A DNA stretch of 64,000 nucleotides from Candidatus Woesearchaeota archaeon (GTDB lineage Archaea > Nanobdellota > Nanobdellia > SCGC-AAA011-G17 > JAGVZF01): contig CAZJUI010000001.1 of the NCBI GenBank assembly GCA_964549185.1, positions 850 to 64,849 of the forward strand, in the 5' to 3' direction. Positions 21,555 to 55,065 of this stretch are shown here, in pieces. The stretch's first letter is position 1. Each line of letters begins with the position of its first letter. The notes under the pieces were generated by a model that saw nothing but the letters and a program-made list of their open reading frames with translations, ran no database searches and had not been told where the DNA came from. A program made the translations under genes and the position numbers.

Positions 21555-22319
21555 ATGGAAAGCTTATCTCTAATCATTCCTGCATATAATGAAGAACATA
21601 GGATAGGGAAAACGTTGGATTACTATTCAGTTTATCTCTCTTCAAACATTAAAGATTTTGAAATTATAGTAGTTTTAAATGGTTGCAAGGACAATACATT
21701 AAATGTTATTTTAAATTATCAAAAAAAATATCCTAAAATAATTAAATATCTTAATTTTACTAATCCAATAGGCAAGGGCCCTGCGGTTATTGAAGGTTTT
21801 AAAGCAGCTAATAATGAATTAATTGGTTTTGTTGATGCTGATATGTCAACACCACCAGAAGCATTTCATGATCTTGTTTTAAAAATAAATGGCTATGATG
21901 GGATATTAGCTTCAAGATGGATTAAAGGAGCCACAATTCCAATACAGCAAAGATTGCCTCGTAGAATCGCTTCAAGGTCTTTTAACATTTTAGTAAGAAT
22001 ATTATTCAACTTAAATGTAAATGATACTCAATGTGGCTGCAAATTATTCAAAAAAAATGCGATCAAATCTATTATTAATGATATTGGCAAAACAAAATGG
22101 GCTTTTGATATTGATGTTTTATATAGATTAAATAAAAAAGGTTATAAAGTGACTGAAATCCCAACATATTGGAGTGATGCAAAAGACTCTCATTTAAATG
22201 TCACAAAAACAAGTATAGAAATGTTTTTATCAATAATAAGGTTAAGATTAATTTACTCAAATCTTGAAGTAATAGTTAAATCATACAATAAAATTCATGA
22301 TTTAATTTTAAAAAAATGA
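21555..22319 (+). CDS. GT2 glycosyltransferase, Dol-P sugar synthase-like.
   Basis: LSLIIPAYNEEHRIGKTL... with a DxD region (FVDADM). 254 aa. Confidence 0.75.
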   Translation: MESLSLIIPAYNEEHRIGKTLDYYSVYLSSNIKDFEIIVVLNGCKDNTLNVILNYQKKYPKIIKYLNFTNPIGKGPAVIEGFKAANNELIGFVDADMSTPPEAFHDLVLKINGYDGILASRWIKGATIPIQQRLPRRIASRSFNILVRILFNLNVNDTQCGCKLFKKNAIKSIINDIGKTKWAFDIDVLYRLNKKGYKVTEIPTYWSDAKDSHLNVTKTSIEMFLSIIRLRLIYSNLEVIVKSYNKIHDLILKK

Positions 22320-23362
22320 AAATATTAACAATATTGCTACCTGGAATAGGAAACACCTTACTATTTACACCAACATTAAAAGCACTAAGGAAAAATTTTC
22401 CAAATTCAGAGATTACAGCTTTGGTTATGTATAAAGGTTCACAAGAGGTATTGGAAGGAAATCCATACATTGATAAAATAATCTTCTATCCATTTATGAA
22501 AAAAGGTCATATTAAATCCTTATTTTTTGTCCTAAAACAAAGATTTCAAAATTATGATATATCAATCCTAGCTTATCCTGCCAATAGATTTCAATATTCC
22601 ATTATTGGATTTTTAATTGGAGCAAAGATTAAAATAACCCATTCATACGATCATAATAAATTATTCTCAGGAAGTTTATTTTATTCAAAAAAATTACCGT
22701 TAAATAAAAACATGCATGAAATAGAAGAAAACCTCAACCTATTAAAACTATTAAATATAAATGCTCTAGGTGAAGATAAATCAGTTTTTCTAAAATTAGA
22801 TAAAGAACATGAAATTTTTGCATCAAATTTTATAAAAAATAATAAACTAAAAGAAAAAAAATTAGTTGGTATTCATGCTGGCTCTTCTGTTTTATCTGGA
22901 ATGATAAACAAAAGATGGCCAAAGGAAAGGTTCGCATCATTAATAGACAAACTATCAAATAAAAATATTATATGTTTATTATTTGGTGGAAATGATGAAT
23001 CTGAGTTAAAAAAATGGATATATGAAAACACAAATAATAAACCTATATTGGTTAATACTCCTTCAGTAAAACATTCTGCATCTTTAATCAAGATGTGTAA
23101 CTTATTTATTTCAAATGACACTGCCCTAATGCATGTAGCTGGAGCTGTTAACACTCCAACAATAGTTCTTGTTGGGCCCGTCCCTAAAAAGACTTTACCT
23201 CAAGGGAATATTCACACCGCAATATTTAAAAATCTGCCCTGTCAGCCTTGTTATAGAATTGGAGACACAATGAAATGTGTCTTAAATATAGATTATAAAT
23301 GTCTTAAAGATATAACAGTAGATGAGGTTTACAATCTGGCATGGAAGAAATTAAAGGAATAA
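22316..23362 (+). CDS. GT9-family glycosyltransferase (LPS heptosyltransferase-like).
   Basis: The N-terminus MKILTILLPGIGNTLLFTPTLKALRKNFPNSEITAL is GT9-characteristic. The fold is GT-B and the length is 348 aa. Its ATGA start overlaps the preceding GT2 stop. Confidence 0.6.
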   Translation: MKILTILLPGIGNTLLFTPTLKALRKNFPNSEITALVMYKGSQEVLEGNPYIDKIIFYPFMKKGHIKSLFFVLKQRFQNYDISILAYPANRFQYSIIGFLIGAKIKITHSYDHNKLFSGSLFYSKKLPLNKNMHEIEENLNLLKLLNINALGEDKSVFLKLDKEHEIFASNFIKNNKLKEKKLVGIHAGSSVLSGMINKRWPKERFASLIDKLSNKNIICLLFGGNDESELKKWIYENTNNKPILVNTPSVKHSASLIKMCNLFISNDTALMHVAGAVNTPTIVLVGPVPKKTLPQGNIHTAIFKNLPCQPCYRIGDTMKCVLNIDYKCLKDITVDEVYNLAWKKLKE

Positions 23363-25483: not shown

Positions 25484-26470
25484 TTACTTTTCGTCCAAAC
25501 TTGCTAACAATTCATCTAAAGTTAATGTTGCTGTTCCAACTTTACCAATAACTATTGCAGCCGCATGATTTGCAACATACATTGAATCCTTAACTCCCAA
25601 TTCAGAAGCTAATCCCAAAGAAAATGTAACTAGTGCCGTATCTCCTGCTCCAGAAAGATCATATACTGGAACTTTTTTTGCTTTAGAATGATAGTAAAGC
25701 CCTTCTTGCCCAAAAAATTTCATTCCTTCTTTACCGCAAGTAATAACAACCCCTCCAGTCCAATATCTAGCTACAATCTCTCTACCAACATGATTTATAT
25801 GCTTATTTTTATCTAGCCCAGTTATCTCTCTTGCCTCTTTAGAATTTAACATTAAAAAATCCATATCATAATAGATGTCAGCATTTACTGGTTTGGGTTC
25901 AATAATAAATAATTTGTTTCTTCTTTTAGCTTCCCTTCTCAAAAATTTTACCAAGGTTTTAGTAATAATCCCTTTACCATAATCTGATATTAAATATACA
26001 TCAGCATCTAAATCAGATTCTCTAAAGTGATTTATTAAAAAATTAGTTTGATCTCTATTCAATCTTGTATCCATTTCTTCATCGAATCTCGCAATTAAAT
26101 CTTCATCATCAGCTATAAGCCTATTTTTTGTTGTAGTTATTCTATTTCTTAATGAAATCACTCTAGATTTAATTCCATTATAAGAAGCTAAATCATGAAC
26201 AACTTTTCCAGATTCATCATTTCCAACAATCCCATATAGATAAGCTGTAGATCCTAAACTTGCAACATTGCTTGCTGTATTCCCTGCACCACCCAAAACA
26301 TTAGAATATCCATTAACTTTCACTAAATTTGTTGCCCGTCTTTCAGGATTTAATCTTTCTATCTCCCCCATGATATAATGATCTAACATAACATCACCAA
26401 CAACTAAGATTTTTCTATTTGGAATTGTTCTAACAATTTCTTTTATTTTTTCTAGGTTCATATTAATCAC
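25484..26470 (-). CDS. D-glycero-beta-D-manno-heptose-7-phosphate kinase (HldE/RfaE domain I homolog, PfkB family).
   Basis: ILVVGDVMLDHY, GGAGNTASNVASLG, LISDYGKG, VYDLSGAGDT and AAIVIGKVGTATL correspond to conserved blocks of the HldE kinase domain. Confidence 0.75.
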   Translation of the reverse strand: MINMNLEKIKEIVRTIPNRKILVVGDVMLDHYIMGEIERLNPERRATNLVKVNGYSNVLGGAGNTASNVASLGSTAYLYGIVGNDESGKVVHDLASYNGIKSRVISLRNRITTTKNRLIADDEDLIARFDEEMDTRLNRDQTNFLINHFRESDLDADVYLISDYGKGIITKTLVKFLRREAKRRNKLFIIEPKPVNADIYYDMDFLMLNSKEAREITGLDKNKHINHVGREIVARYWTGGVVITCGKEGMKFFGQEGLYYHSKAKKVPVYDLSGAGDTALVTFSLGLASELGVKDSMYVANHAAAIVIGKVGTATLTLDELLASLDEK

Positions 26471-28356
26471 TTCGTACTTTCTACTCTCTCCCAGGCGTCA
26501 TTATAATGTTTTCTTATCAATCTAGTATCGTAATAAACACTAATCCACATATATAATCTGGCAAAAAATAATCTTAATGTCCACCAAAATTCTCTCAAAT
26601 TTTTAGGATAAGATAAAGCCCAAAATGTTCCAATAAATACTTCATTAAAAAAAGATTTAACTCTCGGAAAATCAGGAGCATATTTGGTTAATGTTTCATG
26701 AGCCTTTGCTGTTCTTTTTCTTTGTTTAAACCATTCATCAAAATTATCAGGGTTCTTAACAAATACTTTAGCCTCTTTTACATACTTAATTTTATATCCT
26801 CTTTTCCAAAAATAATAAGGGATTATGCTGTCTTCAGCTACATCTAATGGAATCTTATGGATGATATTATTTCTAAAGGCAAATAAATATCCAGAACATT
26901 CTAAAAATTTCCCTTGTTCGGATAATTTTTTTCTTATTTTATGGGCTCCAGCATCAGCCAATAAATGACTCCAATATCCAAATATATCGTCTTTTGTATT
27001 AGATGAAACAATTCTTCCTGTAACACATCCTGTTTTAAGGTCAAAAAAAGATCTAGCAATTTCATTAATTGAATTTTCTCCCAAAACAACATCACCATCT
27101 GTAAAAATCAAAATATCTCCCTTTAATTCTTTAAATAATAAATTTATTGCATAGCTTTTTCCTATTCCAGGATCTTTAAAATATTTTATATTCTGTTTTT
27201 TATTTAGCTTATTAAATAATGTTTTAGCTTCTTCATCTGGACTTGCTATAATAATTTCATAGTCGTAATCTATTTGTTGTTTCAGTATAGAATCAATAGC
27301 CTTTGGCAAATTAGGTTCTTTAAAAGAAGTAACAATAATTGATAATTTATTTTTTATTAACCTATTCGCAGCATTAACAATATTATCTACATTCATCTTA
27401 TTCATACTTTGGCAGTCTGATTTATAACAACATAAACAATTAGAATTTGGCGTTAATCTTATACCTTGTCCATACAAATCTAGTTCTGCAGCAGATGTTG
27501 GACCAACTAAAACGACAACTTTCCTGTTCAGAGCTACAGCTAAATGTAATCCTAAGCTGTCGCTGGTTACAAAAACATTACAAATTGTTATTAATGCTGG
27601 AAATTCAAAAAGATCATTGCCACATCCCGTGTTTATTATAGGAACTTTGCTTAAAGAAATAATATTGTCATTTCTTTCTATCTCATCCTGCCCGCCAAAC
27701 AGCAATATTTTATATTTATAATTTTTATATAACATTTCAGCAAGTTTTGCTGTCTTTTCTATGCTTAATTTCTTTGATGGCCAAACTCCACCAGATCCTG
27801 TATTAATTCCTATAACAATATCCTCTTCTCTTATATTATATCTTCTCTTGAAATCACTTAAAAATTTCCCTTGTTCCCTATTTAATTTTAAATTCATAAA
27901 AGTCTTATCATAATCCACTCCAACCATATCGCTAATAATTTGTTGGTACGTTTTCTTATTTTTCTTTTTGAGAATATCATTTTGGGGTTTCTTGCCTAAT
28001 TTACTCATATCATACCATTCTTTTGCGCTTTCAGAGGGTATAACTCTAAGATTTTTATCTAAATAGTTTCCAATGATCTTTCCAGTTTTAATCTTTGTAG
28101 CCAATGCACAAGCTTCAAAATCTTCATCTAAGTTAATTACAATATCAAAATGCATTCCTTCTAGGTATTTTAAATTTACCTTGCTGTAATAAACTGCATC
28201 ATCAACAAATTTATTATTTTTTATTAGGTAATAAGCATTCTTTTTTGTAAGCCAATAAATCTTTGAATCTCTATATTTTTCTTTTAATGCTGGAAGTATT
28301 GCAGTTGTTCTTACTACATCTCCCATAGCTCCTAATTTAATTATAAGAATTTTCAT
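26467..28356 (-). CDS. Fusion protein: N-terminal GT9 (heptosyltransferase-like) plus C-terminal GT2 glycosyltransferase.
   Basis: The N-terminus MKILIIKLGAMGDVVRTTAILPALKEKYRDSKIYWLT is GT9. The C-terminal half, from about residue 340, has LSIIVTSFKEPNLPKAI...FTDGDV, a GT2 DxD region. 629 aa. It is translationally coupled to the upstream kinase. Confidence 0.65.
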   Translation of the reverse strand: MKILIIKLGAMGDVVRTTAILPALKEKYRDSKIYWLTKKNAYYLIKNNKFVDDAVYYSKVNLKYLEGMHFDIVINLDEDFEACALATKIKTGKIIGNYLDKNLRVIPSESAKEWYDMSKLGKKPQNDILKKKNKKTYQQIISDMVGVDYDKTFMNLKLNREQGKFLSDFKRRYNIREEDIVIGINTGSGGVWPSKKLSIEKTAKLAEMLYKNYKYKILLFGGQDEIERNDNIISLSKVPIINTGCGNDLFEFPALITICNVFVTSDSLGLHLAVALNRKVVVLVGPTSAAELDLYGQGIRLTPNSNCLCCYKSDCQSMNKMNVDNIVNAANRLIKNKLSIIVTSFKEPNLPKAIDSILKQQIDYDYEIIIASPDEEAKTLFNKLNKKQNIKYFKDPGIGKSYAINLLFKELKGDILIFTDGDVVLGENSINEIARSFFDLKTGCVTGRIVSSNTKDDIFGYWSHLLADAGAHKIRKKLSEQGKFLECSGYLFAFRNNIIHKIPLDVAEDSIIPYYFWKRGYKIKYVKEAKVFVKNPDNFDEWFKQRKRTAKAHETLTKYAPDFPRVKSFFNEVFIGTFWALSYPKNLREFWWTLRLFFARLYMWISVYYDTRLIRKHYNDAWERVESTK

Positions 28357-30758: not shown

Positions 30759-31679
30759 TTATCCGATTGCAATCAATACTGTTCCAAAAATCATAATTAA
30801 AGCAGCTACAACATTCTTTATTATTCCTCTTTCTTTAAAGAAAATATATCCATAGATTATGCTAAAAACAATGCTTAATCTTTTTACAGATATCATATAA
30901 GCATTTAAAGTTAAACTTTGCGCTTTGAAAGAAGCCAAGCTCATCAAAGCGCTTAATGTTCCTATTATCAACAATATCCATATATTAGTTTTACTAGCTG
31001 TCCTTATTGGATTTTCTTTAAATCTTATCATTATATATAATGTAGATACAATACAGATTGAAATTATAGCCAATCCAGAAACAGCTAATGGGTTTTTTGT
31101 TTGATTTATTAAAATTTTATACAGTGGAGTTACAACAGCATATAAAAAAGCAGCTATAAGCATATACATTGATCCTTTATCTCTGAATAAGCTTCTAATT
31201 GGTTGGAATGAAATAAATCTTCCTTCTGTTTTTATTATATAAGATCCAAGAAATATCAAAAAAATCCCGATTGCTCCCAATAATGATGGTATTTCATTCA
31301 AAAAAATCCATGATATTATTGTTAAAAAAACAGGTGTAAAACTCAAAAAAGGAACTGTAATTGCTAATCCAGATATTTTAATTGCCTTTACATATAAAAT
31401 TATCGCTATCATCTCTAAAATTCCTGTAACAAAAAGCAAGAGAATTGATAATAAATCTAAATTCGGAATCTTTACAATAAATAATGTTATTATAATTATT
31501 GGTAAAGAAAAAAACCATACTGCCCATGAAACAATATAATCATTATATCTATTTAACGCTAGTTTCTGAACTAAATTATTCGTAGCTGTACTTAGTGCTG
31601 CAAATAAAGATAGTATTAGCCAAAGCATATTTATATTAAAAAAACACAGTTTAAAAAACTTGTTATTAATTAAAAACAT
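30759..31679 (-). CDS. DMT-superfamily (EamA-like) 10-TM transporter.
   Basis: 306 aa, arranged as two blocks of five hydrophobic helices. The annotated start overlaps the divergent neighbour, so the true start may be the internal Met near 31628. Confidence 0.45.
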   Translation of the reverse strand: MFLINNKFFKLCFFNINMLWLILSLFAALSTATNNLVQKLALNRYNDYIVSWAVWFFSLPIIIITLFIVKIPNLDLLSILLLFVTGILEMIAIILYVKAIKISGLAITVPFLSFTPVFLTIISWIFLNEIPSLLGAIGIFLIFLGSYIIKTEGRFISFQPIRSLFRDKGSMYMLIAAFLYAVVTPLYKILINQTKNPLAVSGLAIISICIVSTLYIMIRFKENPIRTASKTNIWILLIIGTLSALMSLASFKAQSLTLNAYMISVKRLSIVFSIIYGYIFFKERGIIKNVVAALIMIFGTVLIAIG

Positions 31680-31707
31680 TTATAACTTTTTCCACCATTC
31701 CATATTT

Positions 31708-33471
31708 ATGAAAGATGTAAAGATCGGTGACAAGATAATTGGCAAAGGCCATCCTGTCTTTGTTATAGCAGAAACAGCCTCTAGCCATGTAGGAAATAAA
31801 GAAAAACTTAAACAACTAATTAAAGCTGCAATAGATTCAGATGCAGACGCAATTAACCTACAAAAATTCTATGCAAATGAGCTTGCTGTTCCTCAAAATC
31901 CACAGCATAAAGACTTAGCAATTATTGAACTTAAAGATTCAGATTGGAAAGAAATCCTAGATTATACTAAAACATTAAACACAATTATTATAGGAAATCC
32001 ATTTGATGAATCAAGTGTTGATTTTTTTGATCCTTATGTAGATGCTTTCAAAATCCACTCTACTGATATTAATAATCCAGAAATGTTAACCAAAGTTGCA
32101 AAAAAGAATAAACCTATGTTTCTCGGTATTGGAGGAGCAAAACCTTTTGAAATAAAAAGAGCAATTAAAATTCTTCAATCAACTGGAAATGATCAAATCG
32201 TCTTAATGCATGGTTTTCAAGCCTTCCCAACAAGATTAGAAGATAGTAATCTAAAATTAATACCGACAGCAGAAAAAGAATATGATCTTCCAACTGGTTT
32301 TCTAGATCATATTGATGCAGAGACAAAGATGGCAATGGTTCTTCCATTATTATCTGTAGTTCAAGGAGCTGTTTTAATTGAAAAACATATCACTCTAGAC
32401 AGAAAATTAAAAGAATATGATTACTTTTCTGCTTTACATCCAAATGAATTCAAAGAAATGATGTTCTTAATTAGAGAAACAGAAAAAGCAATCGGTCATG
32501 GACAATTTATTCAATCAGAAGGTGAAGTTGGATATAATACCATGATGAAAAAGAATTTAGTTGCAAAAGTTCAAATAAAAAAAGATACAATTTTAACAAA
32601 AGATATGATAACTTTCAAAAGAGCTCGAGTTAATCCAGGACCTTCTCCAATTGATATAGAAAAATTTATAGGTAAATCAATAAATAAAGACTTAAATGAA
32701 AATGATCCAATTACAATGGAAGATTTAAATCTTAAATCAATTATTACATTGGCTGTTAGAATGAAATCATCTAGATTGCCAAGAAAAGCTCTAGCTGTAG
32801 TTGAAGATCAAACTGTTATCGAACATTTAATTGATAGAATGAAACTTTGTAAAGTCCCATCTGATTTAATTTTATGTACATCAACTCATCCAGATGACGC
32901 TGTTTTAATAGATATCGCAAAGAAAAAAGATATAAAATATTTTGCAGGTTCAGAAGATGATGTTATGGATCGTTTCATTAAAGCAGCATTGCCTGAAAAA
33001 GCAGATATAATTGTAAGAGTTACAGGAGATAATATTTTCACAGATCCTGAATGGCTTGATGAAACAATAAGATTCCATATAAAAAATAATCTAGATTATT
33101 CATTGCAGGATGGACTTCCAATTGGTTGTGTTTCAGAAGTTATCACTCTACATAATTTAATTAAAGCTCATGAAGCAGCTCTAGATCCTGAAAATACAGA
33201 ATATATGACATATTATTTAAGAAATGAAGATTATTTCAAGGGAAAACAATTAAAAGTTTCAGATGAATTTTATTTTCCAAATTACAGATTAACAATAGAT
33301 AATCCAGAAGATTTACAATTAATTCAAGCAATCTTTAAAGAACTTTACACTCCTGGAAAAGTAATTCCATTAAAGGATGTTCTAAATTTAATAAATAAAA
33401 AGCCTGAATTGCTAAATATAAATAAAAATGTTCAAGGAATACAATTTACAGTTAAGGGTTTGAAAAGTTAG
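31708..33471 (+). CDS. Fusion: NeuB-like nonulosonic acid synthase (N-terminal) plus SpsF/PseF-like cytidylyltransferase (C-terminal).
   Basis: The N-terminus KIGDKIIGKGHPVFVIAETASSHVGN...DADAINLQKF parallels the NeuB ORF at 37739. The C-terminal half has LAVRMKSSRLPRKAL (the SxRLPxK cytidylyltransferase motif, CTP_transf_3). I moved the start to ATG 31708; the track's TTG at 31660 would overlap the divergent gene. Confidence 0.65.
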   Translation: MKDVKIGDKIIGKGHPVFVIAETASSHVGNKEKLKQLIKAAIDSDADAINLQKFYANELAVPQNPQHKDLAIIELKDSDWKEILDYTKTLNTIIIGNPFDESSVDFFDPYVDAFKIHSTDINNPEMLTKVAKKNKPMFLGIGGAKPFEIKRAIKILQSTGNDQIVLMHGFQAFPTRLEDSNLKLIPTAEKEYDLPTGFLDHIDAETKMAMVLPLLSVVQGAVLIEKHITLDRKLKEYDYFSALHPNEFKEMMFLIRETEKAIGHGQFIQSEGEVGYNTMMKKNLVAKVQIKKDTILTKDMITFKRARVNPGPSPIDIEKFIGKSINKDLNENDPITMEDLNLKSIITLAVRMKSSRLPRKALAVVEDQTVIEHLIDRMKLCKVPSDLILCTSTHPDDAVLIDIAKKKDIKYFAGSEDDVMDRFIKAALPEKADIIVRVTGDNIFTDPEWLDETIRFHIKNNLDYSLQDGLPIGCVSEVITLHNLIKAHEAALDPENTEYMTYYLRNEDYFKGKQLKVSDEFYFPNYRLTIDNPEDLQLIQAIFKELYTPGKVIPLKDVLNLINKKPELLNINKNVQGIQFTVKGLKS

Positions 33472-33512: not shown

Positions 33513-33857
33513 ATGGAACAATTAGACAAAAAAATAACTTTTGAAGATGAAGTAACAGTAAATGATCCACTTTATTCCAGTTTAGCTACAACTATTTCTG
33601 CAAGTGGATTTCAAGCAGGTTATGACCAACGGCCATGGAGGGCTCCAAAAAAAGATGATTTGGTAAGTTCCAAACACATCGATATTTTTTCCTATGAAAC
33701 AAGAAGAACTGGTATTTTTGGATTAAATAAAGAAGCAGAATGGATTGGGAGACTATATCTAAATGATCCTTATTATGGAGCAAGAGAAAATTGCAGATGG
33801 GTATTAGATGTTCACGGAAGAAAAAATATTCCGGTATTAACAGAGCTTGCAAAATAA
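33513..33857 (+). CDS. Hypothetical small protein. Its C-terminal domain is shared with the ORF at 34279.
   Basis: 114 aa. The C-terminal GRLYLNDPYYGARENCRWVLDVHGRKNIPVL aligns with GYLYFNDPNKWKMEVYGRNNINKL of the ORF at 34279. Confidence 0.35.
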   Translation: MEQLDKKITFEDEVTVNDPLYSSLATTISASGFQAGYDQRPWRAPKKDDLVSSKHIDIFSYETRRTGIFGLNKEAEWIGRLYLNDPYYGARENCRWVLDVHGRKNIPVLTELAK

Positions 33858-33974: not shown

Positions 33975-34277
33975 ATGATAGACCCAGAAGATGTAAAATT
34001 AGTAAAGGGAAGGGCAAGTGATTTTAGATTAACCAAAAATTTCACAAATGATTTAGATTTAGAATTTATCTGTATGGTATCATCTGCAGATAGTGGAGAT
34101 ATTCAAGCAGTTAAAGGCAATGTTGATGCAGGTATAAAAGAATTAGCTGCTCGGGCTGGAGCAAATTATATATTTGAATTAGAATATGTTTTTCATTTTG
34201 ATAATAATAATGCTGTAATGAATATCATATGCTATGGAGATGCTTACTTAATAAAGCCTAGAAGAGATAATCAATAA
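33975..34277 (+). CDS. YbjQ/UPF0145-family (DUF74) protein.
   Basis: AARAGANYIFELEYVFHF...MNIICYGDAYLIKP matches the conserved GA(N)A(V)...G(T)AV core of YbjQ-family proteins. 100 aa. Confidence 0.5.
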   Translation: MIDPEDVKLVKGRASDFRLTKNFTNDLDLEFICMVSSADSGDIQAVKGNVDAGIKELAARAGANYIFELEYVFHFDNNNAVMNIICYGDAYLIKPRRDNQ

Positions 34278-34278
34278 A

Positions 34279-34758
34279 ATGCCAATCGATGATGCGTTAA
34301 ATGATTTGCCAAAATCAAAAGAAGCGTCAAAACAGATAGTTGCACCTCCAGAGCCAGAGCAAGCAAATAAAGTAACCTTCATTGATACAATACAGCAATT
34401 TAGAAATAGTTTACAATATCATCTTCCTTACCAACTGGCAACAATTATAAAAAGTAAGGGGTTAGAAGTAACATGGGATAATGGTAATATAGTTTCTTCT
34501 TTAGATTCTCAGCATTTTCTAAAATTTATATCGATGGGAATTGCAGCCCAAAAAAGGTTTTGGTTTGGTCATGACTGGATAGGTTATTTATATTTTAATG
34601 ATCCTAATAAATGGAAAATGGAAGTTTATGGAAGAAATAATATAAATAAATTAAAAAATCTTGCTGACGAAATATCAAAACGGTATTCAAAAGATATAGA
34701 GCTTATATTAGAATTAGAATATCCAAGACCAAAGCCAGTAGGATTTTATAATTTATAA
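34279..34758 (+). CDS. Hypothetical protein sharing a C-terminal domain with the ORF at 33513.
   Basis: 159 aa. Its start is 2 nt after the stop of the YbjQ-like gene. See the shared motif above. Confidence 0.35.
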   Translation: MPIDDALNDLPKSKEASKQIVAPPEPEQANKVTFIDTIQQFRNSLQYHLPYQLATIIKSKGLEVTWDNGNIVSSLDSQHFLKFISMGIAAQKRFWFGHDWIGYLYFNDPNKWKMEVYGRNNINKLKNLADEISKRYSKDIELILELEYPRPKPVGFYNL

Positions 34759-34759: not shown

Positions 34760-35902
34760 CTAAATCTTTAATTCTTCATAAATTAACCTAACAACCCTTT
34801 CAGTAGCTTTCCCATCATTACCTTCAACAAAGCTTTTCCTTCTTTCTTTTAATTCTTCTCTAAATTCTCCATTATATAATATTTTCATTAAATTAGGAAC
34901 TAACTCTCTTGTCTCATAAACGCCAAGAGAATAACCATTTTTATTAGTAATTAATGGATCTTCTGTTTTTAATCCAACTTGTAAACTTAAAACATCGGTA
35001 TCTAATAAACAAGCTTCCATTAATGAAGTTGACATCATCCCAACTACCAAATTAGAAGCTTTCATTGTCTCTCTCGTATTATAATTATTATTATACTCTC
35101 TTTTTGTTGCATCTTCCTTTCCACTAATAACAAAATTCATATCTTTTAACAATAATGTTCTTTCTGCAATATCTTCAAATGTCTCTCTGGGATGAAATTT
35201 AATCACAAAAGTTCCATGATATCCCATGTCATTCAATCCCTTAGACAATATTTTAAAAATTGTTTCTTCATTATAACCCCAATCAGTCGTTTTATTAGCT
35301 TTAAGATCTCCTTTAATTGGCTGTGAAATAAATGTTATCAAACTTCCTTCTGGGTGCACTCCAAAATATTCTCTTATCTCTTTTCTTTTATTAATTGTAA
35401 ATTTAGCATTTAATTCTCCTATATCATCAAAGTAAGGGTTTCCTGTAATCTTTAATCTTTCTCTAGGTAAACTTTCTTTAACCATTTTCTCCAAACTTTC
35501 TGCATCTAATGCTGTATGAATATCAGGCATGCATCCTAAGTTATCTCCAGTTTTATCATTTCTAACTCTTACAATATAATTTACAGGTAAATCTATAACA
35601 GATAAACTTCTAACTCCTATCCTTCTAGCAGCTAATATTCCTTCTTTTTCAACACACCATCCACCACTGCTTCCAGTAACTAAAAAGTTTGGTTTTTCTT
35701 CTTCCATAGCTATATCACCACTCAAGTAATCATCTAGTTTTCTATGGGGTAAGCCAGCTTGTGTAAATAAACTAACAGCAGGTCCGTTAGCTATTAATGT
35801 CAAATCCACTTTATCATCTTTTTGCAATCTTCTTGCAACAGGGATAACAGAATTCGCACTTCCAGTATATTGCGCTGCCACCATCACTTTAGGTTTTGTC
35901 AC
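34760..35902 (-). CDS. Putative GT-B-fold glycosyl/nonulosonate transferase with a KxHP motif.
   Basis: 380 aa Rossmann-like protein. The VIKFHPRE motif is paralogous to IIKLHPKD in the ORF at 35942. HP motifs are catalytic in bacterial GT-B sialyltransferases and KpsC/S-type transferases. This is an assignment by motif only. Confidence 0.3.
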   Translation of the reverse strand: MTKPKVMVAAQYTGSANSVIPVARRLQKDDKVDLTLIANGPAVSLFTQAGLPHRKLDDYLSGDIAMEEEKPNFLVTGSSGGWCVEKEGILAARRIGVRSLSVIDLPVNYIVRVRNDKTGDNLGCMPDIHTALDAESLEKMVKESLPRERLKITGNPYFDDIGELNAKFTINKRKEIREYFGVHPEGSLITFISQPIKGDLKANKTTDWGYNEETIFKILSKGLNDMGYHGTFVIKFHPRETFEDIAERTLLLKDMNFVISGKEDATKREYNNNYNTRETMKASNLVVGMMSTSLMEACLLDTDVLSLQVGLKTEDPLITNKNGYSLGVYETRELVPNLMKILYNGEFREELKERRKSFVEGNDGKATERVVRLIYEELKI

Positions 35903-35941: not shown

Positions 35942-37726
35942 CTATTTTATAGATATTTCATCAATAAGATTTATAACTCTTTCGGTGCTTTTTCCATCAA
36001 TTTTATAAGCATAATCCTTAATAAATTTCTCCATGTTTTTTTCTAGTTTTTCCTTAATCTTTTTATTGTTAAAAACCTCATTTATTGCCTTTTTCAATTC
36101 ATTTTCTTCTTTTATATCAATTACACATCCATAATCATTGTAATCAATCATTTCATTACTTCCTTTTATGTTGGCTAAATTTAAAGTAATTACAGGAACA
36201 TTAAACAACATAGATTCAATAACAACAGTAGATGAAGCCCTGCTTATAGTTAAATCTGCAATATTCAAAAAATTATAAATATCATAATCTTTAACAACAA
36301 CAACTTTGTTTTTAATATCCTTTAATCTGCTATTATAGAAATCAACCTCATCTTTTGGATGTAATTTTATTATTAGTTGCTCATCTTGCAAAGAATTAAT
36401 AACCGCCTTGAACATATCTTCTTTCTCTGGAACTGTCTGTGTTCCAAATAATATTATCTTTTTATCTTTATCCAAATTAAATTGTTTATATACTTCTTCT
36501 TTATTATATTGTTTATTTTTAATAATATCGAACTTACTGGCTCCAGTTATAACTATTTTCTTATCATTAACATTATTTTGTAATAAAAATTTCTTTGTAG
36601 CTTCTCCCCAAACAGCTATTTTTGTGCTTGTAACAGGAACAAATCCCAATCTTCCAGCAACTCCATGTTGTAAAACTAAAGATTTTATCTCTAATTTATT
36701 CCCGACAAAAGATACTGTTTTTCCAAATCTATGAACATCACTGCCTATAACAATAACATCTATCTTCTCTTTTTTTATAACAATTTTAATTCCTTCAATT
36801 AGTCTAACAACTTCATAAAAATGTTTAAACACGGTATAATACAATTCATCTTCTAAAATTTCCCATAAATTAATATTATCATACATAAATCTCCTATCTT
36901 GTTGTAAAATTTCCCATATCTGATCAAGCTCTTTCTTCTTTTTATCAAGAATATTATTTATTTCATTTAAATCATAATCCGCAAATGTATTAAATTTAAT
37001 GCCCTTTTTCGCAAATGCCTCCTGAACGTCTAAAGCTAAAGCGAATACTAAATAATTTTTGCCTTGTTTTTTCATCTCTTCTATAATCGGAAGCATTATT
37101 TGCGGATCTAAATTTAAATAGCTAAAAAACATCACTCTCTTATCTCCATAGTTTTTATTCTTATAATTAAAATTTTTTAACTTTACATAATTATCCAAAA
37201 CAACTGGTTTTATGTATCTTCCAGCAATAAATTTTGTTTTTTTTCTAAATATATTCATAAGATTAACATTCCCATTGCTAATAATCTCATATTTAGCATT
37301 CAGTTCCTTCAAACTAGTAATTATTGTTTTGCTTAGAAGATCTTTTCCATCAACTATCAAAAACATATCTGGTTTCTCTTTCTCAATAACCTTCTTTATT
37401 AATTCTACATTTACAATCAAGCTTCTTAAAACAAGTTCAAAATGTAAGCTTGTACATTCATATAATGGAATTCCATCATGCTTTGCCAATTTTTTTGCTT
37501 CAGAAAAACTAATCATTTTCCAATTAATGCTCATATTTCTTATTTTATCACTTAATTCATTAATTAATTTAGTTTCATTGATATAATCACTCTTCGTTTT
37601 AACATTCGTAGAATTAATTTTTTTGTTAGAAAGATTTAGTACTATTCCATCCCCTAAATCTTTTAATCTTCTATCAATCTTATCTAGTTCTTTCTCGTCT
37701 TTTACTATTCCGATAATCCTTGTCAT
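35942..37726 (-). CDS. Two-domain putative GT-B-like transferase (KxHP motif), paralogous to the ORF at 34760.
   Basis: 594 aa. The C-terminal half contains VLQHGVAGRLG and IIKLHPKDE. It is co-oriented with the ORF at 34760 and with NeuB. Confidence 0.3.
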   Translation of the reverse strand: MTRIIGIVKDEKELDKIDRRLKDLGDGIVLNLSNKKINSTNVKTKSDYINETKLINELSDKIRNMSINWKMISFSEAKKLAKHDGIPLYECTSLHFELVLRSLIVNVELIKKVIEKEKPDMFLIVDGKDLLSKTIITSLKELNAKYEIISNGNVNLMNIFRKKTKFIAGRYIKPVVLDNYVKLKNFNYKNKNYGDKRVMFFSYLNLDPQIMLPIIEEMKKQGKNYLVFALALDVQEAFAKKGIKFNTFADYDLNEINNILDKKKKELDQIWEILQQDRRFMYDNINLWEILEDELYYTVFKHFYEVVRLIEGIKIVIKKEKIDVIVIGSDVHRFGKTVSFVGNKLEIKSLVLQHGVAGRLGFVPVTSTKIAVWGEATKKFLLQNNVNDKKIVITGASKFDIIKNKQYNKEEVYKQFNLDKDKKIILFGTQTVPEKEDMFKAVINSLQDEQLIIKLHPKDEVDFYNSRLKDIKNKVVVVKDYDIYNFLNIADLTISRASSTVVIESMLFNVPVITLNLANIKGSNEMIDYNDYGCVIDIKEENELKKAINEVFNNKKIKEKLEKNMEKFIKDYAYKIDGKSTERVINLIDEISIK

Positions 37727-37738: not shown

Positions 37739-38809
37739 CTATTTCTTCAATTCTCCCACATGTTCCCAATCTAATATATCATCCTCTTTCATATCCTTTA
37801 CTGCTTTTCTTCCTATAATCTCTCTAAAGAATCTCGGATTAATTCCTGTACCGGGTCTTTTTGATGTTATATTTTTAATGTCAAATATCTCCCCAGCCTT
37901 AATATCTCTATTAGCTACAATGCTTCTTCTTGCTAATCTTTGAGCCGGCTCTTCAACTTTAATTGGTCGTCTTGCTAATGAACTTCCTAATGCACTTTCG
38001 ATCTGTTTTATATTTGTGACCATCTCTTTCAATTCTTTAGGATCTACAGATAACCAATGATCCGCACTTCCCTTCAATGCTTTATCTATGGTATAATGTT
38101 TCTCTATCATCTTTGCTCCTAAACTAACAGCTCCGATTGGCACCAAAGTTCCTAAACTATGATCACTTAATCCAATTAAATAATCCGGAAATATTTTCTT
38201 TAAAGTTGGAATCATATTCAAATTCATATCTTCAGTTGGTGTCGGATAAGACAAAATGCAATGCAACAATATTATTTGATTATTTCCCTCTTCTTCAATC
38301 ACCCTTGCAGCTTCTTCTATCTCCCCAATTGTAGCTGCTCCTGTTGATAATGCCATTGGTAATCCTTTTTTTGCTATATGTCTTAAAAGATTTAAATGAG
38401 TTATATCCGCACTTGCAATTTTATACATTGGCACCCCAATCTTTTCCAAAAAATCGGCACTTTCCTCGTCAAAGGGTGTTGAAAAAAATATTATTCCTAA
38501 TTCTTCAGCATATTTCTGCATTTTAATAAAATCTTCTTCGCTAAGATAATCGAAGTTCTTGTATTCATCATACTGTGTTTCATCACTTTCTGTCCAATAT
38601 TTGGGAGAATTTTTTATTGCTATTTTTTCAGCTTTATATGTTTGGAATTTTATGGCATCAGCTCCATTTTCTTTTGCCTTTTTTATTAATTCATAACCTC
38701 TTTCTAACATACAATCATGATTTACTCCAGCTTCAGCTACAACAAAACATGGCTCATCATCCCCTACATATCTATTTCCTATCTTTATTCTTGTCACCAT
38801 TTCAACCAC
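37739..38809 (-). CDS. neuB: N-acetylneuraminate/nonulosonic acid synthase (NeuB/PseI/LegI family) with a C-terminal SAF domain.
   Basis: CFVVAEAGVNHDCMLE...ADAIKFQTYKAEK, STPFDEESADFL, ILLHCILSYPTPTEDMNLN and a C-terminal KAGEIFD...ITSKRPGTG SAF domain. The match to E. coli NeuB blocks is strong. Confidence 0.85.
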   Translation of the reverse strand: MVEMVTRIKIGNRYVGDDEPCFVVAEAGVNHDCMLERGYELIKKAKENGADAIKFQTYKAEKIAIKNSPKYWTESDETQYDEYKNFDYLSEEDFIKMQKYAEELGIIFFSTPFDEESADFLEKIGVPMYKIASADITHLNLLRHIAKKGLPMALSTGAATIGEIEEAARVIEEEGNNQIILLHCILSYPTPTEDMNLNMIPTLKKIFPDYLIGLSDHSLGTLVPIGAVSLGAKMIEKHYTIDKALKGSADHWLSVDPKELKEMVTNIKQIESALGSSLARRPIKVEEPAQRLARRSIVANRDIKAGEIFDIKNITSKRPGTGINPRFFREIIGRKAVKDMKEDDILDWEHVGELKK

Positions 38810-40193
38810 CCTTATAGTTTCTTATTATCTGTTCAGCAAGCCACAAATCATATTCATTATATATCCTTACAGCTTCGTTCGGCATCATCTCTACATAAGC
38901 TACACTATTCCCAATAATTCCATTATTGTTTAAATTTTCTAAAGTTGTAATATAAAATGCTCCATTTTCTTCTAGGATAGTATCTTTTTCATCTCTCAAT
39001 AATCTTTTATTAAATAATGGCTCGATTCCATATCTTCCTGGTTTCCAATGAAAATTAAGGTTTGCACAAACAGAGACTATGCTATCTGTTTTAAATATTA
39101 ACTGGGTAAAAATTCCTTCTTTTATATGCTCACTTGTTTTAAAGGGGCTTATCAAATGTAAAACAGCAATTAAATCAGGAACATAATCATCATTCTTCTT
39201 CAAATAATCAACAACATGTCTTACAACATCATCAACATGAACTGTTTTTTTTGCTAAATCAACAGGTCTTTTGATAACATAAGCTCCTATTTTTTCAGCA
39301 GCACTTGCAATGTCATAATCTTCAGTAGAAACAACAATTTTATTAAACAATTCAGTTTTTTTCGCTTCATCTATCGTATAAGATAATAAAGGTTTTCCAT
39401 TTAAATTAGCGATTGGAATTTTAATCCCATTAATCATGTCGCCCCTAGCAGGAATAACAGCTAATATTTTCAAATTTTTTAACTTTCCATCATAATGTCT
39501 TTTAACAAATTCTTCCTTTACAATTCTTTTAGAGTGTAAAATCCCTTTCATATTCTTAGTCATATTTGCGCCATGTCTTCTATAATAAAACAAAGGCAGA
39601 TTAATATTTCTAACTTTAAATTTAGTAATAAACTTCATCCAAAAATCATAGTCTTCTCCAATCTTTAAATTTTCATTATATCCCCCAATTTCATCATAGC
39701 ATGTTCTCTTGTACATCGCTCCAGCAGCTAAAGGACTTCTTTGCAGTAAATCAACTTCTTCATTAACTTTCATCAATCTATTATGCTCCAATATCTTTCC
39801 ATCTTCATCTATGGTATAATAATCTGAATAAACCAAATCAACATCTTTATTTTCATACAAAAATCTTTCTTCTACCAATAGCAAATTATCATCAAAATAA
39901 TCATCAGCATCTAATCTTATTATAAAATCCCCCTGAGACATACTAATTCCTTTATTACAAGCTGCACTTAATCCAACATTATCTACCCTTATTACTTTCA
40001 AATTATTTGGAAATTTTGATTTATAACTCTGAATAACATCTTGAGTCTCATCTGTACTTCCATCATCTACTATAATAATCTCAAAATCCTTATATGTCTG
40101 TCTAAATAAACTTTCCAGGCATTTACCTAAAAACCTTCCGTAATTGTGAGCTGTCACTATCACACTTACTCTCGGTTTCTTAATAGTCTCCAT
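38802..40193 (-). CDS. Fusion: GT2 glycosyltransferase (N-terminal) plus NeuA-like CMP-nonulosonate synthetase (C-terminal).
   Basis: The N-terminus is VSVIVTAHNYGRFLGKCLESLFRQTYKDFEIIIVDDGSTDET (GT2). The C-terminus ILAVIPARGDMINGIKIPIANLNGKPLLSYTIDEA...VVSTEDYDIASAAEKIGAYVIKRP...LHLISPFK parallels NeuA blocks (IPARGGS, LxGKPLIAYTI, VSTDD, QPTSPLR). Confidence 0.7.
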   Translation of the reverse strand: METIKKPRVSVIVTAHNYGRFLGKCLESLFRQTYKDFEIIIVDDGSTDETQDVIQSYKSKFPNNLKVIRVDNVGLSAACNKGISMSQGDFIIRLDADDYFDDNLLLVEERFLYENKDVDLVYSDYYTIDEDGKILEHNRLMKVNEEVDLLQRSPLAAGAMYKRTCYDEIGGYNENLKIGEDYDFWMKFITKFKVRNINLPLFYYRRHGANMTKNMKGILHSKRIVKEEFVKRHYDGKLKNLKILAVIPARGDMINGIKIPIANLNGKPLLSYTIDEAKKTELFNKIVVSTEDYDIASAAEKIGAYVIKRPVDLAKKTVHVDDVVRHVVDYLKKNDDYVPDLIAVLHLISPFKTSEHIKEGIFTQLIFKTDSIVSVCANLNFHWKPGRYGIEPLFNKRLLRDEKDTILEENGAFYITTLENLNNNGIIGNSVAYVEMMPNEAVRIYNEYDLWLAEQIIRNYKGG

Positions 40194-40228: not shown

Positions 40229-41305
40229 CTATATATTAACCTTTATCTCAGAAGGTTTAGCATATCTATAACCCTCATGCAGATTGCAAGTTCTGCAAGC
40301 AGGCATAACATCTAACTTGCTTTGTTTATGCAACTCTCTTAATTGATTTAGTATTGCTCCATTCCATATCTCTTTTAATGTTTGTTTAGTAACATCACCC
40401 ACAACATTTTTTCTAAACCAATCTCCACAGCACATCATAACCTTTCCATCCCACGCTACCATCAATCTTTGGAATGGCTGTGGACAAGTTTTTCTTCCTA
40501 AGGTAATTTGATCATATTCAATTGATCTATCATTTTCTTCTCCTTCCCCCCTATTGCTGTAATCATTAGTTGCAACATGATCTACTATTCCTTCCCACAT
40601 TTTGATAAATTGGTCAACTTCATGAACATTATCTTTCATCCTAACCATCTGTATTCTGATAAATGGTTTTTTCTTTCCCATTTCATTTCTTATTCTTACA
40701 AAATCTTTAATATTTTTCATTAAAATGTCATATTTTGCTCTCACTCTTATTTTTTCATAAGTTTCCTTAGTTGCTCCATCCATAGAAAATATTATTCCAT
40801 CTAATCCAGCTTCTATCAATCCTCTTATTTTATTTTCATTTAATAAAGTTCCATTAGAATTTGTTTGTAATTCCTTTATGCCTTTATCTTTTGCATATTT
40901 CACCATTTCAATAAATTTAGGATGTATTAATGGTTCTCCTCTCCAATTAAGTTTCATAGAATATAATCCTTCTTTTGCACATTCATCTACAATTTTATGA
41001 AATAAATCCATTGTAATAAATCCGTCTTGAATTCCGCTTCTATCAAAACTCTGTGGGCACATTACACATCTTAAATTGCATGCATCACTCGGTTCTATAT
41101 CAACATGTGTTGGGAATTTAGGTATTAATCCAAATCTTGCAACTCTCGGGCTCCAATTCCATTTAGCCCTATACCATAAGTACTTAGGATCTTTCTTATT
41201 CATAAACTTCTTTAATTTAGCTTTAAATCCACCTTGTATGTGATGTCCACTTCCACCATAGAAGTGTTGTTTCTCGTTTGTTTCATTACTTTGTTCAGTT
41301 GACAT
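40229..41305 (-). CDS. Radical SAM protein with a C-terminal SPASM/twitch Cys-rich domain.
   Basis: The CxxxCxxC triad is SDACNLRCVMC. The C-terminus CPQPFQRLMVAWDGKVMMCCGDW...PACRTCNL provides auxiliary Fe-S cysteines. Confidence 0.7.
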   Translation of the reverse strand: MSTEQSNETNEKQHFYGGSGHHIQGGFKAKLKKFMNKKDPKYLWYRAKWNWSPRVARFGLIPKFPTHVDIEPSDACNLRCVMCPQSFDRSGIQDGFITMDLFHKIVDECAKEGLYSMKLNWRGEPLIHPKFIEMVKYAKDKGIKELQTNSNGTLLNENKIRGLIEAGLDGIIFSMDGATKETYEKIRVRAKYDILMKNIKDFVRIRNEMGKKKPFIRIQMVRMKDNVHEVDQFIKMWEGIVDHVATNDYSNRGEGEENDRSIEYDQITLGRKTCPQPFQRLMVAWDGKVMMCCGDWFRKNVVGDVTKQTLKEIWNGAILNQLRELHKQSKLDVMPACRTCNLHEGYRYAKPSEIKVNI

Positions 41306-41312: not shown

Positions 41313-42767
41313 TTAAACAGTAGCTTCCCCGCTTTTTCCGGTTATCAAATTTAAAGCGCCTAAAGCTCCTCTCGCATAATATTTTACTTGTTCAAATGAT
41401 TTAATTCCAATAAACATCTTCCATAAATAACTTGGTCTCATATAAAATTCTTTGTAAGCTTTCTTTCTTAACTCTTGTAATTGGTCTGTTGTTAATTCCC
41501 TAGATCTTATTAATGGATCTTCAGCTATCTGCACCCAATTATCCCAATTTGGATCTGAAATTAAGTTTTCTTTTACAGTAATATCATACAATCCGGTTCC
41601 AACAATCGGGATTGCCAAGAAAAAATAAGCTAACTGAGGATTAATCTCTTTAGCTAATTTTATTGTTTCTTCAAATGTTTCTGTTGTCTCTCCAGGATAT
41701 CCTAAAATAAAAGATGCTGATGCTGGAATTCCAACTTCATGTATTAACTTAAAAGCTGCTTTTATTTGTGCAGGGGTTTGATCTTTTTCCATTGCATCCA
41801 ATATTTTTTGACTTCCTGACTCTACTCCAAATCTAACAAAATAACATCCTGATTTTTTCATCTTTTCTAAGCTTTCTCTGTCACAATGATTAACTCTAGT
41901 CAAACAGTTCCAATGCAGATCATAATCTCTTTTTATTAATCCATCTAAAATTGGATTCATTCTGCTTTTATTAATAACAAAAATTTCATCATTAAATTCC
42001 AAGCAATGAATATTAAATTTATCAACCAAATAGTCTATTTCTTCCAATGTTCTCTCAACACTCCAATATCTTACTTTTCTCGTCCACATAACCTTAGAAG
42101 CACAAAAATTACATCTGTAAGGACATCCTCTTAAAGAAAAAAATATTGTGAATGGTTGTAATTTAACACCTTTAACCTGGAATGAACTATGGTGCGCAGG
42201 TGGTCTATATAATTCCATAGGCAATAAATCATAAGCTGGCATTGGCAAAATATCTAAATTTTCAATTAATGGTCTTGGAGCAGTCATTCTTATCTGTCCA
42301 TTGTCTCTGTAAATCATTCCATTAACTTTAGATAAATCTTTTTTTCCTCTTTTTTCTAATTTATCTAATAGCTCAACTGTTGTTATCTCCCCCTCACTTA
42401 TAACTCCATAATCAACAATTGGAAATTCTTTCATTGTCTCAAAAGGCAGTGCAGTCATATGATCTCCACCTAAGAAAGTCTTAACATTAGGACTAACATT
42501 TCTAGCTATCTGTAGAACATCACATGCTTTTTTTACTGTAGGTGTAACAGCCCCAACTCCAACTACATCAACATCTTTTGGAATATGTTTATGCAATTCA
42601 CTCATCGGAATTTGTAAAGCAACAGCATCTAGAATACTCACTTTATGCCCATTCTCTCTCATATAAGCAGCAAGATAAGCTAATCCCATTGGTTGATTAA
42701 TTCCTGCAACTGTTGGAACTTTCTTATATACTTCCTGGTAGCTTGGGTTGATGAGTTGGACTTTCAT
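41313..42767 (-). CDS. B12-binding radical SAM protein, paralog 3.
   Basis: N-terminal B12-binding domain (MKVQLINPS...). The CxxxCxxC triad is GCPYRCNFC. 484 aa. Confidence 0.8.
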   Translation of the reverse strand: MKVQLINPSYQEVYKKVPTVAGINQPMGLAYLAAYMRENGHKVSILDAVALQIPMSELHKHIPKDVDVVGVGAVTPTVKKACDVLQIARNVSPNVKTFLGGDHMTALPFETMKEFPIVDYGVISEGEITTVELLDKLEKRGKKDLSKVNGMIYRDNGQIRMTAPRPLIENLDILPMPAYDLLPMELYRPPAHHSSFQVKGVKLQPFTIFFSLRGCPYRCNFCASKVMWTRKVRYWSVERTLEEIDYLVDKFNIHCLEFNDEIFVINKSRMNPILDGLIKRDYDLHWNCLTRVNHCDRESLEKMKKSGCYFVRFGVESGSQKILDAMEKDQTPAQIKAAFKLIHEVGIPASASFILGYPGETTETFEETIKLAKEINPQLAYFFLAIPIVGTGLYDITVKENLISDPNWDNWVQIAEDPLIRSRELTTDQLQELRKKAYKEFYMRPSYLWKMFIGIKSFEQVKYYARGALGALNLITGKSGEATV

Positions 42768-42912: not shown

Positions 42913-43230
42913 TCATATTTTGATGCCTTCTTTTACGGCTTCTGAAACTATAGAAACCTGTTTCTTTAATTTCTTGAACTCTCCCGGAGTATAGCAAAGA
43001 AAATCTACTGGATAATTTAAATCCCAATAATCATACATTTTAGCTCCTCTTTTAAAAAAATCTAATTTTTTAAATTTGGGGCTTACTATTATCAAATCTA
43101 TATCGCTCCATTTATGTGTTCTACCTGAAACTTGGGAACCAAATAAATACATATTTGTTATAGGGAAATCCTCATTTACAGATTTTTTAAAAAATTTTAA
43201 TTTTAATTTTATAGTTTTTTTCTTATCCAT
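42913..43230 (-). CDS. Minimal nucleotidyltransferase (MNT), a HEPN/MNT-type toxin-antitoxin component.
   Basis: MYLFGSQVSGRTHKWSDIDLIIV is the GSx(n)DxD nucleotidyltransferase signature. 105 aa. It overlaps the upstream HEPN gene by 22 nt. Confidence 0.7.
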   Translation of the reverse strand: MDKKKTIKLKLKFFKKSVNEDFPITNMYLFGSQVSGRTHKWSDIDLIIVSPKFKKLDFFKRGAKMYDYWDLNYPVDFLCYTPGEFKKLKKQVSIVSEAVKEGIKI

Positions 43231-54995: not shown

Positions 54996-55065
54996 AATAA
55001 TGGTAAATTACAAAGATTTATATAACTTTTCTATTCTTTATTTTTAATTCTTTAAGGTGATAGTA

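Follow-up and report, generated by a model that had tools for sequence, protein, structure and literature searches.

The stretch of DNA analysed here, 64,000 nucleotides (nt) of contig CAZJUI010000001.1 (assembly GCA_964549185.1; positions 850 to 64,849 of the forward strand) from a Candidatus Woesearchaeota archaeon and referred to below as the window, carries a gene in which a NeuB-like synthase and an SpsF-type cytidylyltransferase are joined in one polypeptide. This fusion gene lies in an uninterrupted open reading frame (ORF) at 31660..33471 on the plus strand, whose first ATG, at 31708, opens a frame of 587 amino acids (aa) plus a stop codon. The start at this ATG fits the homologues, alignments with which begin at residues 1-4 of the fusion protein. 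An earlier, sequence-only reading of the window had already placed both activities in one chain at 31708-33471, and the single ORF with its three Pfam domains bears this out:

31708..33471, plus strand: fusion gene, NeuB-like TIM barrel, SAF cap and SpsF-type cytidylyltransferase (ORF, Pfam and NCBIfam matches, identical protein P0001)
31816..32502, plus strand: NeuB-family TIM barrel, aa 37-265 (Pfam NeuB, E 1.3e-48, 166 bits, cutoff 22.1)
32557..32727, plus strand: SAF/antifreeze-like cap, aa 284-340 (Pfam SAF, 32.4 bits, cutoff 21)
32755..33333, plus strand: SpsF-type cytidylyltransferase, aa 350-542 (Pfam CTP_transf_3, E 9.4e-17, 62 bits, cutoff 22.6)
31679..31685, plus strand: TTTATAA, a possible archaeal TATA box for a leaderless transcript in AT-rich sequence, about 26 nt 5' of the ATG

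A scan for sigma-70 promoters and terminators was uninformative, the sequence being AT-rich and archaeal, and a tRNA search found none.

The signature that the sequence-only reading had assigned to a cytidylyltransferase in the C-terminal part is LAVRMKSSRLPRKAL, at aa 348-362. The domain contains a cytidine triphosphate (CTP) loop (R351-x2-S354-x-R356-L357-x2-K360), a T439-G440-D441 motif and an acidic pair, D531/D535; R351, S354, R356, K360 and the latter two motifs are invariant or nearly so among 26 relatives. The fold extends to about aa 575. Its best match, by sequence (E 3e-20) as well as by fold, is the Leptospira borgpetersenii cytidylyltransferase 6OEW, which differs in being a standalone protein of 250 aa. 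Other standalone homologues, at most 57% identical, are named SpsF by JGI, in line with an SpsF-type (COG1861-like) domain. The synthetases of cytidine monophosphate (CMP)-activated 3-deoxy-D-manno-octulosonic acid (Kdo), KdsB, give marginal sequence matches in the PDB (E about 1e-3), the best NCBIfam matches are weak and are to CMP-Kdo synthetase models (KdsB-type no more than 54, with cutoffs of 193 or higher), and the PseF equivalog TIGR03584 does not match the fusion protein. The N-terminal 347 aa align collinearly, SAF included, with a canonical NeuB ORF of the window (37739-38809) at 33% identity (E 3e-54), so that the earlier description of the two as parallel and clearly divergent holds. 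An AlphaFold2 model built with 26 relatives is confident throughout (mean predicted local distance difference test, pLDDT, 92). Its N-terminal part superposes on Campylobacter jejuni PseI (PDB 8H2C, template modelling (TM) score 0.86-0.88) and Neisseria meningitidis NeuB (PDB 1XUU, TM 0.84) with a root-mean-square deviation of 2.4-3.0 Å, and its C-terminal part superposes on 6OEW (TM 0.88).

As far as sequence data go, an artefact or a dead copy is essentially excluded. The sequence-only reading had itself raised the concern that mis-assembly or a sequencing error might have joined two genes, or that the N-terminal domain might be an inactive duplicate without the catalytic NeuB residues. The changes K53N, T110N, S154G and S213L in the window protein's own small clade (numbered here and below as in N. 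meningitidis NeuB) and the existence of the two halves as separate genes in about a third of relatives would suit such a history, yet we regard it as very improbable. Protein P0001, identical to the fusion ORF product, occurs on an NCBI contig of 122 kb and on a Logan contig from an independent assembly, and fused proteins that are 95% identical occur on 14 further contigs from several sources, one of them annotated from a metagenome-assembled genome of Candidatus Nanoarchaeia; the identical ORF in an independent assembly, together with many fused relatives (36 of the 80 species-representative loci described below), rules out an assembly artefact. Compared with the 95% identical relative at locus L007, the ratio of nonsynonymous to synonymous substitution rates (dN/dS) is 0.035 in the TIM barrel, 0.10 in the SAF cap and 0.075 in the cytidylyltransferase domain, by which measure purifying selection acts on all three parts and most strongly on the NeuB-like one. 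This value for the barrel, along with metal ligands and catalytic acids that are kept on alignment, rules out an inactive duplicate, and the confident model likewise argues against a relic.

The fusion is catalogued and not unusual, contrary to what the sequence-only reading had supposed: the fusion, or the same pair of genes side by side, accounts for over 100 protein clusters and for at least 583 genome loci across many phyla, and NCBI has already named it. A protein search returned 261 matches; the best 120 clusters include 111 full-length proteins (540 aa or more), of which nearly all cover at least 90% of the query with collinear NeuB and CTP_transf_3 architecture. Sources of the clusters include Nitrospirota, Omnitrophota, Elusimicrobiota, Proteobacteria and Bacillus. 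NCBI calls the family, whose members are about 560-620 aa long, 'N-acetylneuraminate synthase family protein'; Bacillus proteins of 592-596 aa have RefSeq WP_ accessions under this name or that of 'spore coat protein'. The window protein is thus a further member of a sequenced, named and experimentally uncharacterised family. When one genome per species was scanned, at least 583 loci carried the fusion or the same two genes side by side, and the detailed counts given here refer to the best 80 of them. These come from Nanoarchaeia, Woesearchaeota, Methanosarcinales, Thaumarchaeota and Heimdallarchaeota among Archaea, and among Bacteria from Saccharibacteria, SAR11, cultured Paenibacillus species, a Clostridiaceae isolate and the B. 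subtilis group. They divide as follows:

36 of 80 loci: a single in-frame ORF
28 of 80 loci: both genes side by side on one strand, the cytidylyltransferase match following the NeuB-like stop after 8-94 nt (262 nt once)
16 of 80 loci: the N-terminal domain only, or a truncated form

Fused and split states both occur in Archaea and in Bacteria and are interleaved among nearest neighbours in the tree, a Rosetta-stone pattern from which it follows that the two proteins, NeuB-like and SpsF-type, function together. For the split loci, read-through of the stop codon was considered and rejected: in 10 of the 28 the two genes share a frame with one stop between them, and the distribution over the three frames (10/6/12) is the chance expectation for short spacers. 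The closest studied pair is SpsE and SpsF of B. subtilis, a legionaminic acid synthase and a putative CMP-legionaminic acid synthetase, whose neighbouring genes resemble the split forms of the family, whereas the window protein has the two activities in one chain. The spsE and spsF genes are adjacent and act in legionaminic acid synthesis and use (PMC7439481).

The N-terminal domain keeps the metal ligands and catalytic acids of a NeuB enzyme and belongs to a clade of its own. We surveyed the fusion protein and its 111 full-length relatives, with reference sequences taken from PDB alignments. E25, H30, Q55, K129, D214, H215, E234, H236, D247 and R314 are kept in the fusion protein and in nearly all of the relatives, so that the metal ligands H215/H236, the catalytic acids E25/E234 and the arginine of the SAF cap are all present in the window. 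In N. meningitidis NeuB it is R314 that positions the N-acetyl group (PMC6795526), and 107 of the 111 have its equivalent. Position 134 is D in the fusion protein and in 90 of 111 members; E134D is a known variant of archaeal and eukaryotic synthases, for which a link with phosphorylated substrates has been proposed (PMC8208679). PseI (8H2C) and NeuB (1XUU) share with the domain the fold and H215/H236, E25, E234, K129, Q55, D247 and R314; they differ from it in that identity is 22-25%, T110 is replaced by D/N, N/S184 by Q, S213 by A/M/Q/L and, in the window's clade, K53 by N, and in that fusion-type domains have a cytidylyltransferase attached and form a separate clade. Among solved structures the best sequence match is B. 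subtilis SpsE (PDB 1VLI, 131 bits), which however has a canonical pocket (K53, T110, S154, S213, Y186) and is far closer to the window's canonical NeuB (248 bits). A neighbour-joining tree of 156 NeuB domains places the fusion-type sequences in a single group, which stands apart from their canonical partners, NeuB, SpsE, PseI and Leptospira NeuB. The exact bipartition was recovered in only 11 of 30 bootstrap replicates, and the monophyly of the group therefore rests partly on its shared signature of Q184, non-T110 and non-S213.

The fusion gene is the second set of synthase and activator in the window. The genes listed next lie 1.3-11 kb downstream of it on the other strand, and a gene for an EamA transporter is divergent from it:

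34760-35902 and 35942-37726, minus strand: two BFO_1060/TIGR04396-type GT-B proteins, candidate CMP-ulosonic-acid transferases (NCBIfam, 42 and 102 bits)
37739..38809, minus strand: canonical NeuB + SAF synthase, 356 aa, with K53, T110, S154, S213 and Y186 kept, closest to B. subtilis SpsE (Pfam/NCBIfam, residue mapping)
38802..40193, minus strand: glycosyltransferase family 2 (GT2) domain (aa 10-134) + PseF-like cytidylyltransferase (aa 244-442), 463 aa (Pfam/NCBIfam)
40229-41305, minus strand: radical SAM/SPASM enzyme, part of a recurring cassette (Pfam/NCBIfam)
41313-42767, minus strand: B12-binding radical SAM enzyme, part of the same cassette (Pfam/NCBIfam)

The first set consists of the canonical NeuB and the GT2-cytidylyltransferase protein, whose ORF overlaps the NeuB start by 8 nt. 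The earlier claim that the region holds two NeuB paralogs and two types of cytidylyltransferase stands on BLASTP and Pfam evidence, whereas the protein described there as NeuA-like at 38802 proved to be the GT2-cytidylyltransferase fusion. BLASTP detects no similarity between the two cytidylyltransferase domains of the region, and they are therefore of different types.

The explanation that we favour, in which we place about even confidence, is that the fusion is a bifunctional enzyme whose NeuB-type domain builds an ulosonic acid and whose SpsF-type domain CMP-activates it for the neighbouring transferases. We infer that the N-terminal metal-dependent TIM barrel with its SAF cap would condense a three-carbon enolpyruvate donor, by homology phosphoenolpyruvate (PEP), with the aldehyde of a sugar, probably a 2-acetamido sugar. 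The product would be a 2-keto-3-deoxy 'ulosonic' acid, most likely of nine carbons, which the fused cytidylyltransferase would convert with CTP to a CMP-sugar; the BFO_1060-type transferases would then use this CMP-sugar, and the sugar's destination would be a surface glycan or N-linked glycan of this DPANN archaeon. Local context supports such a reading, since candidate CMP-sugar transferases, AglB and flippases are in the same island. Because the window holds a separate canonical set, the product of the fusion is probably a sugar other than that of the canonical NeuB.

By its Pfam and NCBIfam matches the window is an archaeal-type glycan island. It contains AglB/STT3 (11768-14374, plus strand), a GT4-family phosphosugar transferase, two flippases, many GT2/GT4/GT9 glycosyltransferases, a carbamoyltransferase, a WecB-type epimerase (425 bits) and a GFO/DegT/hexapeptide trio. 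The GFO/IDH/MocA dehydrogenase, DegT, hexapeptide acetyltransferase and WecB-type 2-epimerase lie at 54357-56166, 59256-60173 and 7916-9031, and we take this set, with AglB, to resemble the 2,3-diacetamido-2,3-dideoxy-uronic acid route of methanogen N-glycans. An attempt to assign the sugar from these neighbours failed. No 4,6-dehydratase, NeuC or PseG-type hydrolysing enzyme is encoded in the 64-kb window, the epimerase is of WecB type and the trio looks like one for a 2,3-diacetamido sugar. The sequence-only reading had suggested that two different nonulosonic or ulosonic acids are made here, for example one of a pseudaminic/legionaminic (Pse/Leg) type and one of a neuraminic/2-keto-3-deoxynonulosonic (Neu/Kdn) type. 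With two sets, two CMP-activated ulosonic acids could plausibly be made; for the particular assignment the window offers no support.

In other genomes the unit is usually found beside a canonical synthase, which lies within 10 kb in 51 of the 64 loci of at least 12 kb. DegT aminotransferases occur in 38 of the same 64 loci and PseB-like dehydratases in 31, and the canonical partners are closest to SpsE (44), PseI (26) or NeuB (9). The idea that the fusion-type SAF complements SAF-less canonical partners was ruled out, as 71 of 80 partners carry their own SAF. BFO_1060-type proteins are the commonest neighbours outside the pathway itself (32 of 72 loci). A sub-cassette of radical SAM/SPASM enzyme, NeuB-cytidylyltransferase fusion, GT2-cytidylyltransferase fusion and canonical NeuB recurs in Nitrospira, Vicinamibacterales, Omnitrophota and Nanoarchaeia, and in bacteria it adjoins flagellar genes and Maf-like transferases; a radical SAM/SPASM gene is near the unit in 14 of 72 loci, at a median distance of 338 nt. 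The GT2-cytidylyltransferase fusion itself recurs beside the NeuB-cytidylyltransferase fusion in Nitrospira (L003/L011), Nanoarchaeia (L008), Vicinamibacterales (L035) and Omnitrophota (L060). The NCBIfam family TIGR04321 ('spiro-SPASM') joins a cytidylyltransferase-like domain to a radical SAM/SPASM domain; its N-terminal part matches the C-terminal domain of the fusion and its C-terminal part the window's radical SAM/SPASM ORF at 40229, with the differences that its fusion partner is another one and that the scores, 21 and 93, are far under the family cutoff of 250. These matches hint that a CMP-sugar or its precursor could be a radical-SAM substrate. A literature search on 'spiro-SPASM' found nothing.

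In Paenibacillus sp. FSL K6-1217 (L037) the operon reads GT2, BFO_1060-like, PseB-like, short-chain dehydrogenase/reductase (SDR), PseC, fusion, aldo-keto reductase, SDR, PseG, small ORF and PseI, and PseC, PseG and PseI exceed their equivalog cutoffs. The aldo-keto reductase (KidO-like) and SDR (gluconate-5-dehydrogenase-like) directly 3' of the fusion, at 11781-13497 of this locus, stand in an otherwise standard Pse operon; such a pair also accompanies the fusion in about 6-16 other loci and may cooperate with the NeuB-like domain. In a Candidatus Woesearchaeota contig (L041, JAGVYE010000046.1, 7604-11740) one ORF of 1378 aa comprises DegT, canonical NeuB, fusion-type NeuB, SAF and cytidylyltransferase. 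A double-SDR fusion comes before it and GT28-C-like and polysialyltransferase-like proteins come after it, and the BFO_1060-type homologue of this locus weakly matches a polysialyltransferase Pfam family. Copies in the B. subtilis group, namely in Bacillus spizizenii (L001/L002), B. stercoris (L025) and B. rugosus (L026), are orphans, without glycan genes nearby; given a substrate, the unit can thus stand by itself. These genomes, which presumably also hold the sps operon, carry the fusion elsewhere on the chromosome. The fused gene is flanked there by genes for DUF5362 and DUF5392 proteins, with a PLD-domain (cardiolipin-synthase-like) gene and the urease operon close by, and some strains of the group, natto included, are annotated with a truncated form of 322 aa.

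Several observations weigh against the favoured explanation. The canonical pocket residues K53, T/S110, S154, S213 and Y186, which we take to form the PEP pocket, in part after the 1XUZ structure, are N53, N110, G154, L213 and F186 in the fusion protein. Across the 111 relatives T110 is D in 102 and T in 2, N184 is Q in 110 and S213 is kept in 12, giving a clade consensus of K53, D110, S/G154, A/M/Q213 and Q184. T110, K129, N184, Y186 and S213 are among the residues listed as lining the NeuB site (PMC6795526). As these residues are systematically altered, the donor or the chemistry may differ. The small clade of the window protein has Asn in place of both K53 and D110, and the few other sequences that lack D/E at 110 likewise lose K53; this co-loss suggests a K53-D110 pair. 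The canonical NeuBs of the same loci retain K53, T/S110, S213 and Y186. The domain also falls far short of the NCBIfam equivalog cutoffs for NeuB (TIGR03569, 195 against 399.65) and PseI (TIGR03586, 177 against 340.25), being about equidistant from the two. In 23 loci that we checked by an unfiltered hidden Markov model search (E<=100), the SpsF-type domain was the only cytidylyltransferase within ±10 kb, though a complete canonical synthase was present, and the Paenibacillus operon has no PseF. The genes that make the precursors of known nonulosonic acids are absent from the 64-kb window, and a literature search found no description or assay of a natural NeuB-cytidylyltransferase fusion.

Given the unit's usual place beside a canonical NeuB, the 23 loci in which it supplies the sole cytidylyltransferase and the 1378-aa ORF, one pathway with two NeuB-type domains is a live alternative, possible although we hold it doubtful. 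The SpsF-type domain would then be the general CMP-activator for the acid of the canonical NeuB, and the NeuB-like domain would carry out a different, undescribed step on or beside its product, such as a metal-dependent retro-aldol/aldol epimerisation, a pyruvate-dependent reaction or the handing over of substrate to the cytidylyltransferase. The loss of canonical PEP-pocket residues across the clade, the joint change of K53 and D110 and the covariation of pocket residues 134, 186 and 288 with the type of canonical partner all fit such a division of labour, as does a Paenibacillus operon with PseB-like, PseC, PseG and PseI proteins in which the fusion's domain alone could act as PseF. The window is a poor fit, in that its canonical NeuB has a cytidylyltransferase domain of its own next door, and so are the Bacillus orphans, which are far from any NeuB. 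Moreover, the metal and acid/base residues needed for NeuB chemistry are all retained, the 2:1 pattern is explained just as well if two synthases share one cytidylyltransferase, and such a reaction is without precedent in this fold. A bolder form of the idea, which we consider unlikely, is that the whole fusion-type NeuB clade, rather than being a second ordinary nonulosonic acid synthase, catalyses a new enzymatic step in partnership with the canonical synthase and passes what it makes straight to the attached cytidylyltransferase. The step might remodel the nine-carbon acid by a metal-dependent aldol/retro-aldol reaction, or it might draw on a donor other than PEP. If true, Archaea and Bacteria would share an undescribed branch of nonulosonic acid synthesis, extended in some lineages by radical SAM/SPASM and B12-radical-SAM enzymes.

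Another possibility, to which we give little credence, is that the two steps of the favoured explanation are performed on a housekeeping sugar or sugar phosphate, for example mannose 6-phosphate, N-acetylmannosamine 6-phosphate or a pentose or heptose phosphate, giving a CMP-activated Kdn/Kdo-like acid independently of the Pse/Leg/Neu routes. The want of local precursor genes, both in the window and around the B. subtilis-group orphans, would be accounted for; the prevalence of E134D with its proposed link to phosphorylated substrates, the weak best matches of the cytidylyltransferase domain to CMP-Kdo synthetase models and the presence in the island of a PfkB/RfaE-like sugar kinase and GT9 heptosyltransferase-like genes also point this way. 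Yet the conserved R314 speaks for an N-acetylated substrate, DegT and PseB-like dehydratase genes, typical of diacetamido sugars, occur in about half of the loci, and no phosphatase is fused to the unit or consistently adjacent to it, the 159-aa ORF downstream in the window having no HAD signature.

Nonulosonic acids, of which sialic, legionaminic and pseudaminic acid are examples, are displayed on flagella, S-layers, spores and capsules and shape recognition by hosts and phages, and genome surveys infer a microbe's sugar from its NeuB homologue. Here a large NeuB clade found in Archaea and Bacteria alike fits none of the characterised synthases, having an SpsF-type partner, a remodelled PEP pocket and usually a canonical NeuB as neighbour, and automated labels such as 'N-acetylneuraminate synthase' or 'legionaminate synthase' should therefore not be relied on for it. 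There is nothing out of the ordinary in the fusion by itself; it is the distinct pocket, the near-obligatory pairing with a canonical NeuB and the 2:1 ratio of synthases to cytidylyltransferases that are of some interest. Since the family occurs in tractable organisms (B. subtilis strains, Paenibacillus), its function is directly testable. For the DPANN archaeon of the window, these genes point to an elaborate acidic surface glycan.

Some further features of the island may be recorded. Directly downstream of the fusion gene, on the same strand, are three small ORFs without a Pfam or NCBIfam match (33513-33857, 33975-34277 and 34279-34758, plus strand), of which 33513-33857 and 34279-34758 share a C-terminal motif, W-I-G-x-L-Y-x-N-D-P ... 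G-R-x-N-I, and look like paralogues. The island has four B12-radical-SAM genes, that at 41313-42767 on the minus strand and others at 2643-4061, 16685-18028 and 46824-48350 on the plus strand. GT9 'heptosyltransferase'-family genes, one of them fused to GT2, and the PfkB kinase lie at 22316-23362 (plus strand), 25484-26470 (minus strand) and 26467-28356 (minus strand); the kinase scores 262 bits, under the cutoff, against a model of heptose-7-phosphate kinase (RfaE domain I), and heptose-type chemistry would be unexpected here. Finally, small nucleotidyltransferase (MNT) and HEPN-domain ORFs at 42913-43230, 56159-56644 and 56598-57164, on the minus strand, look like pairs of toxin-antitoxin type.

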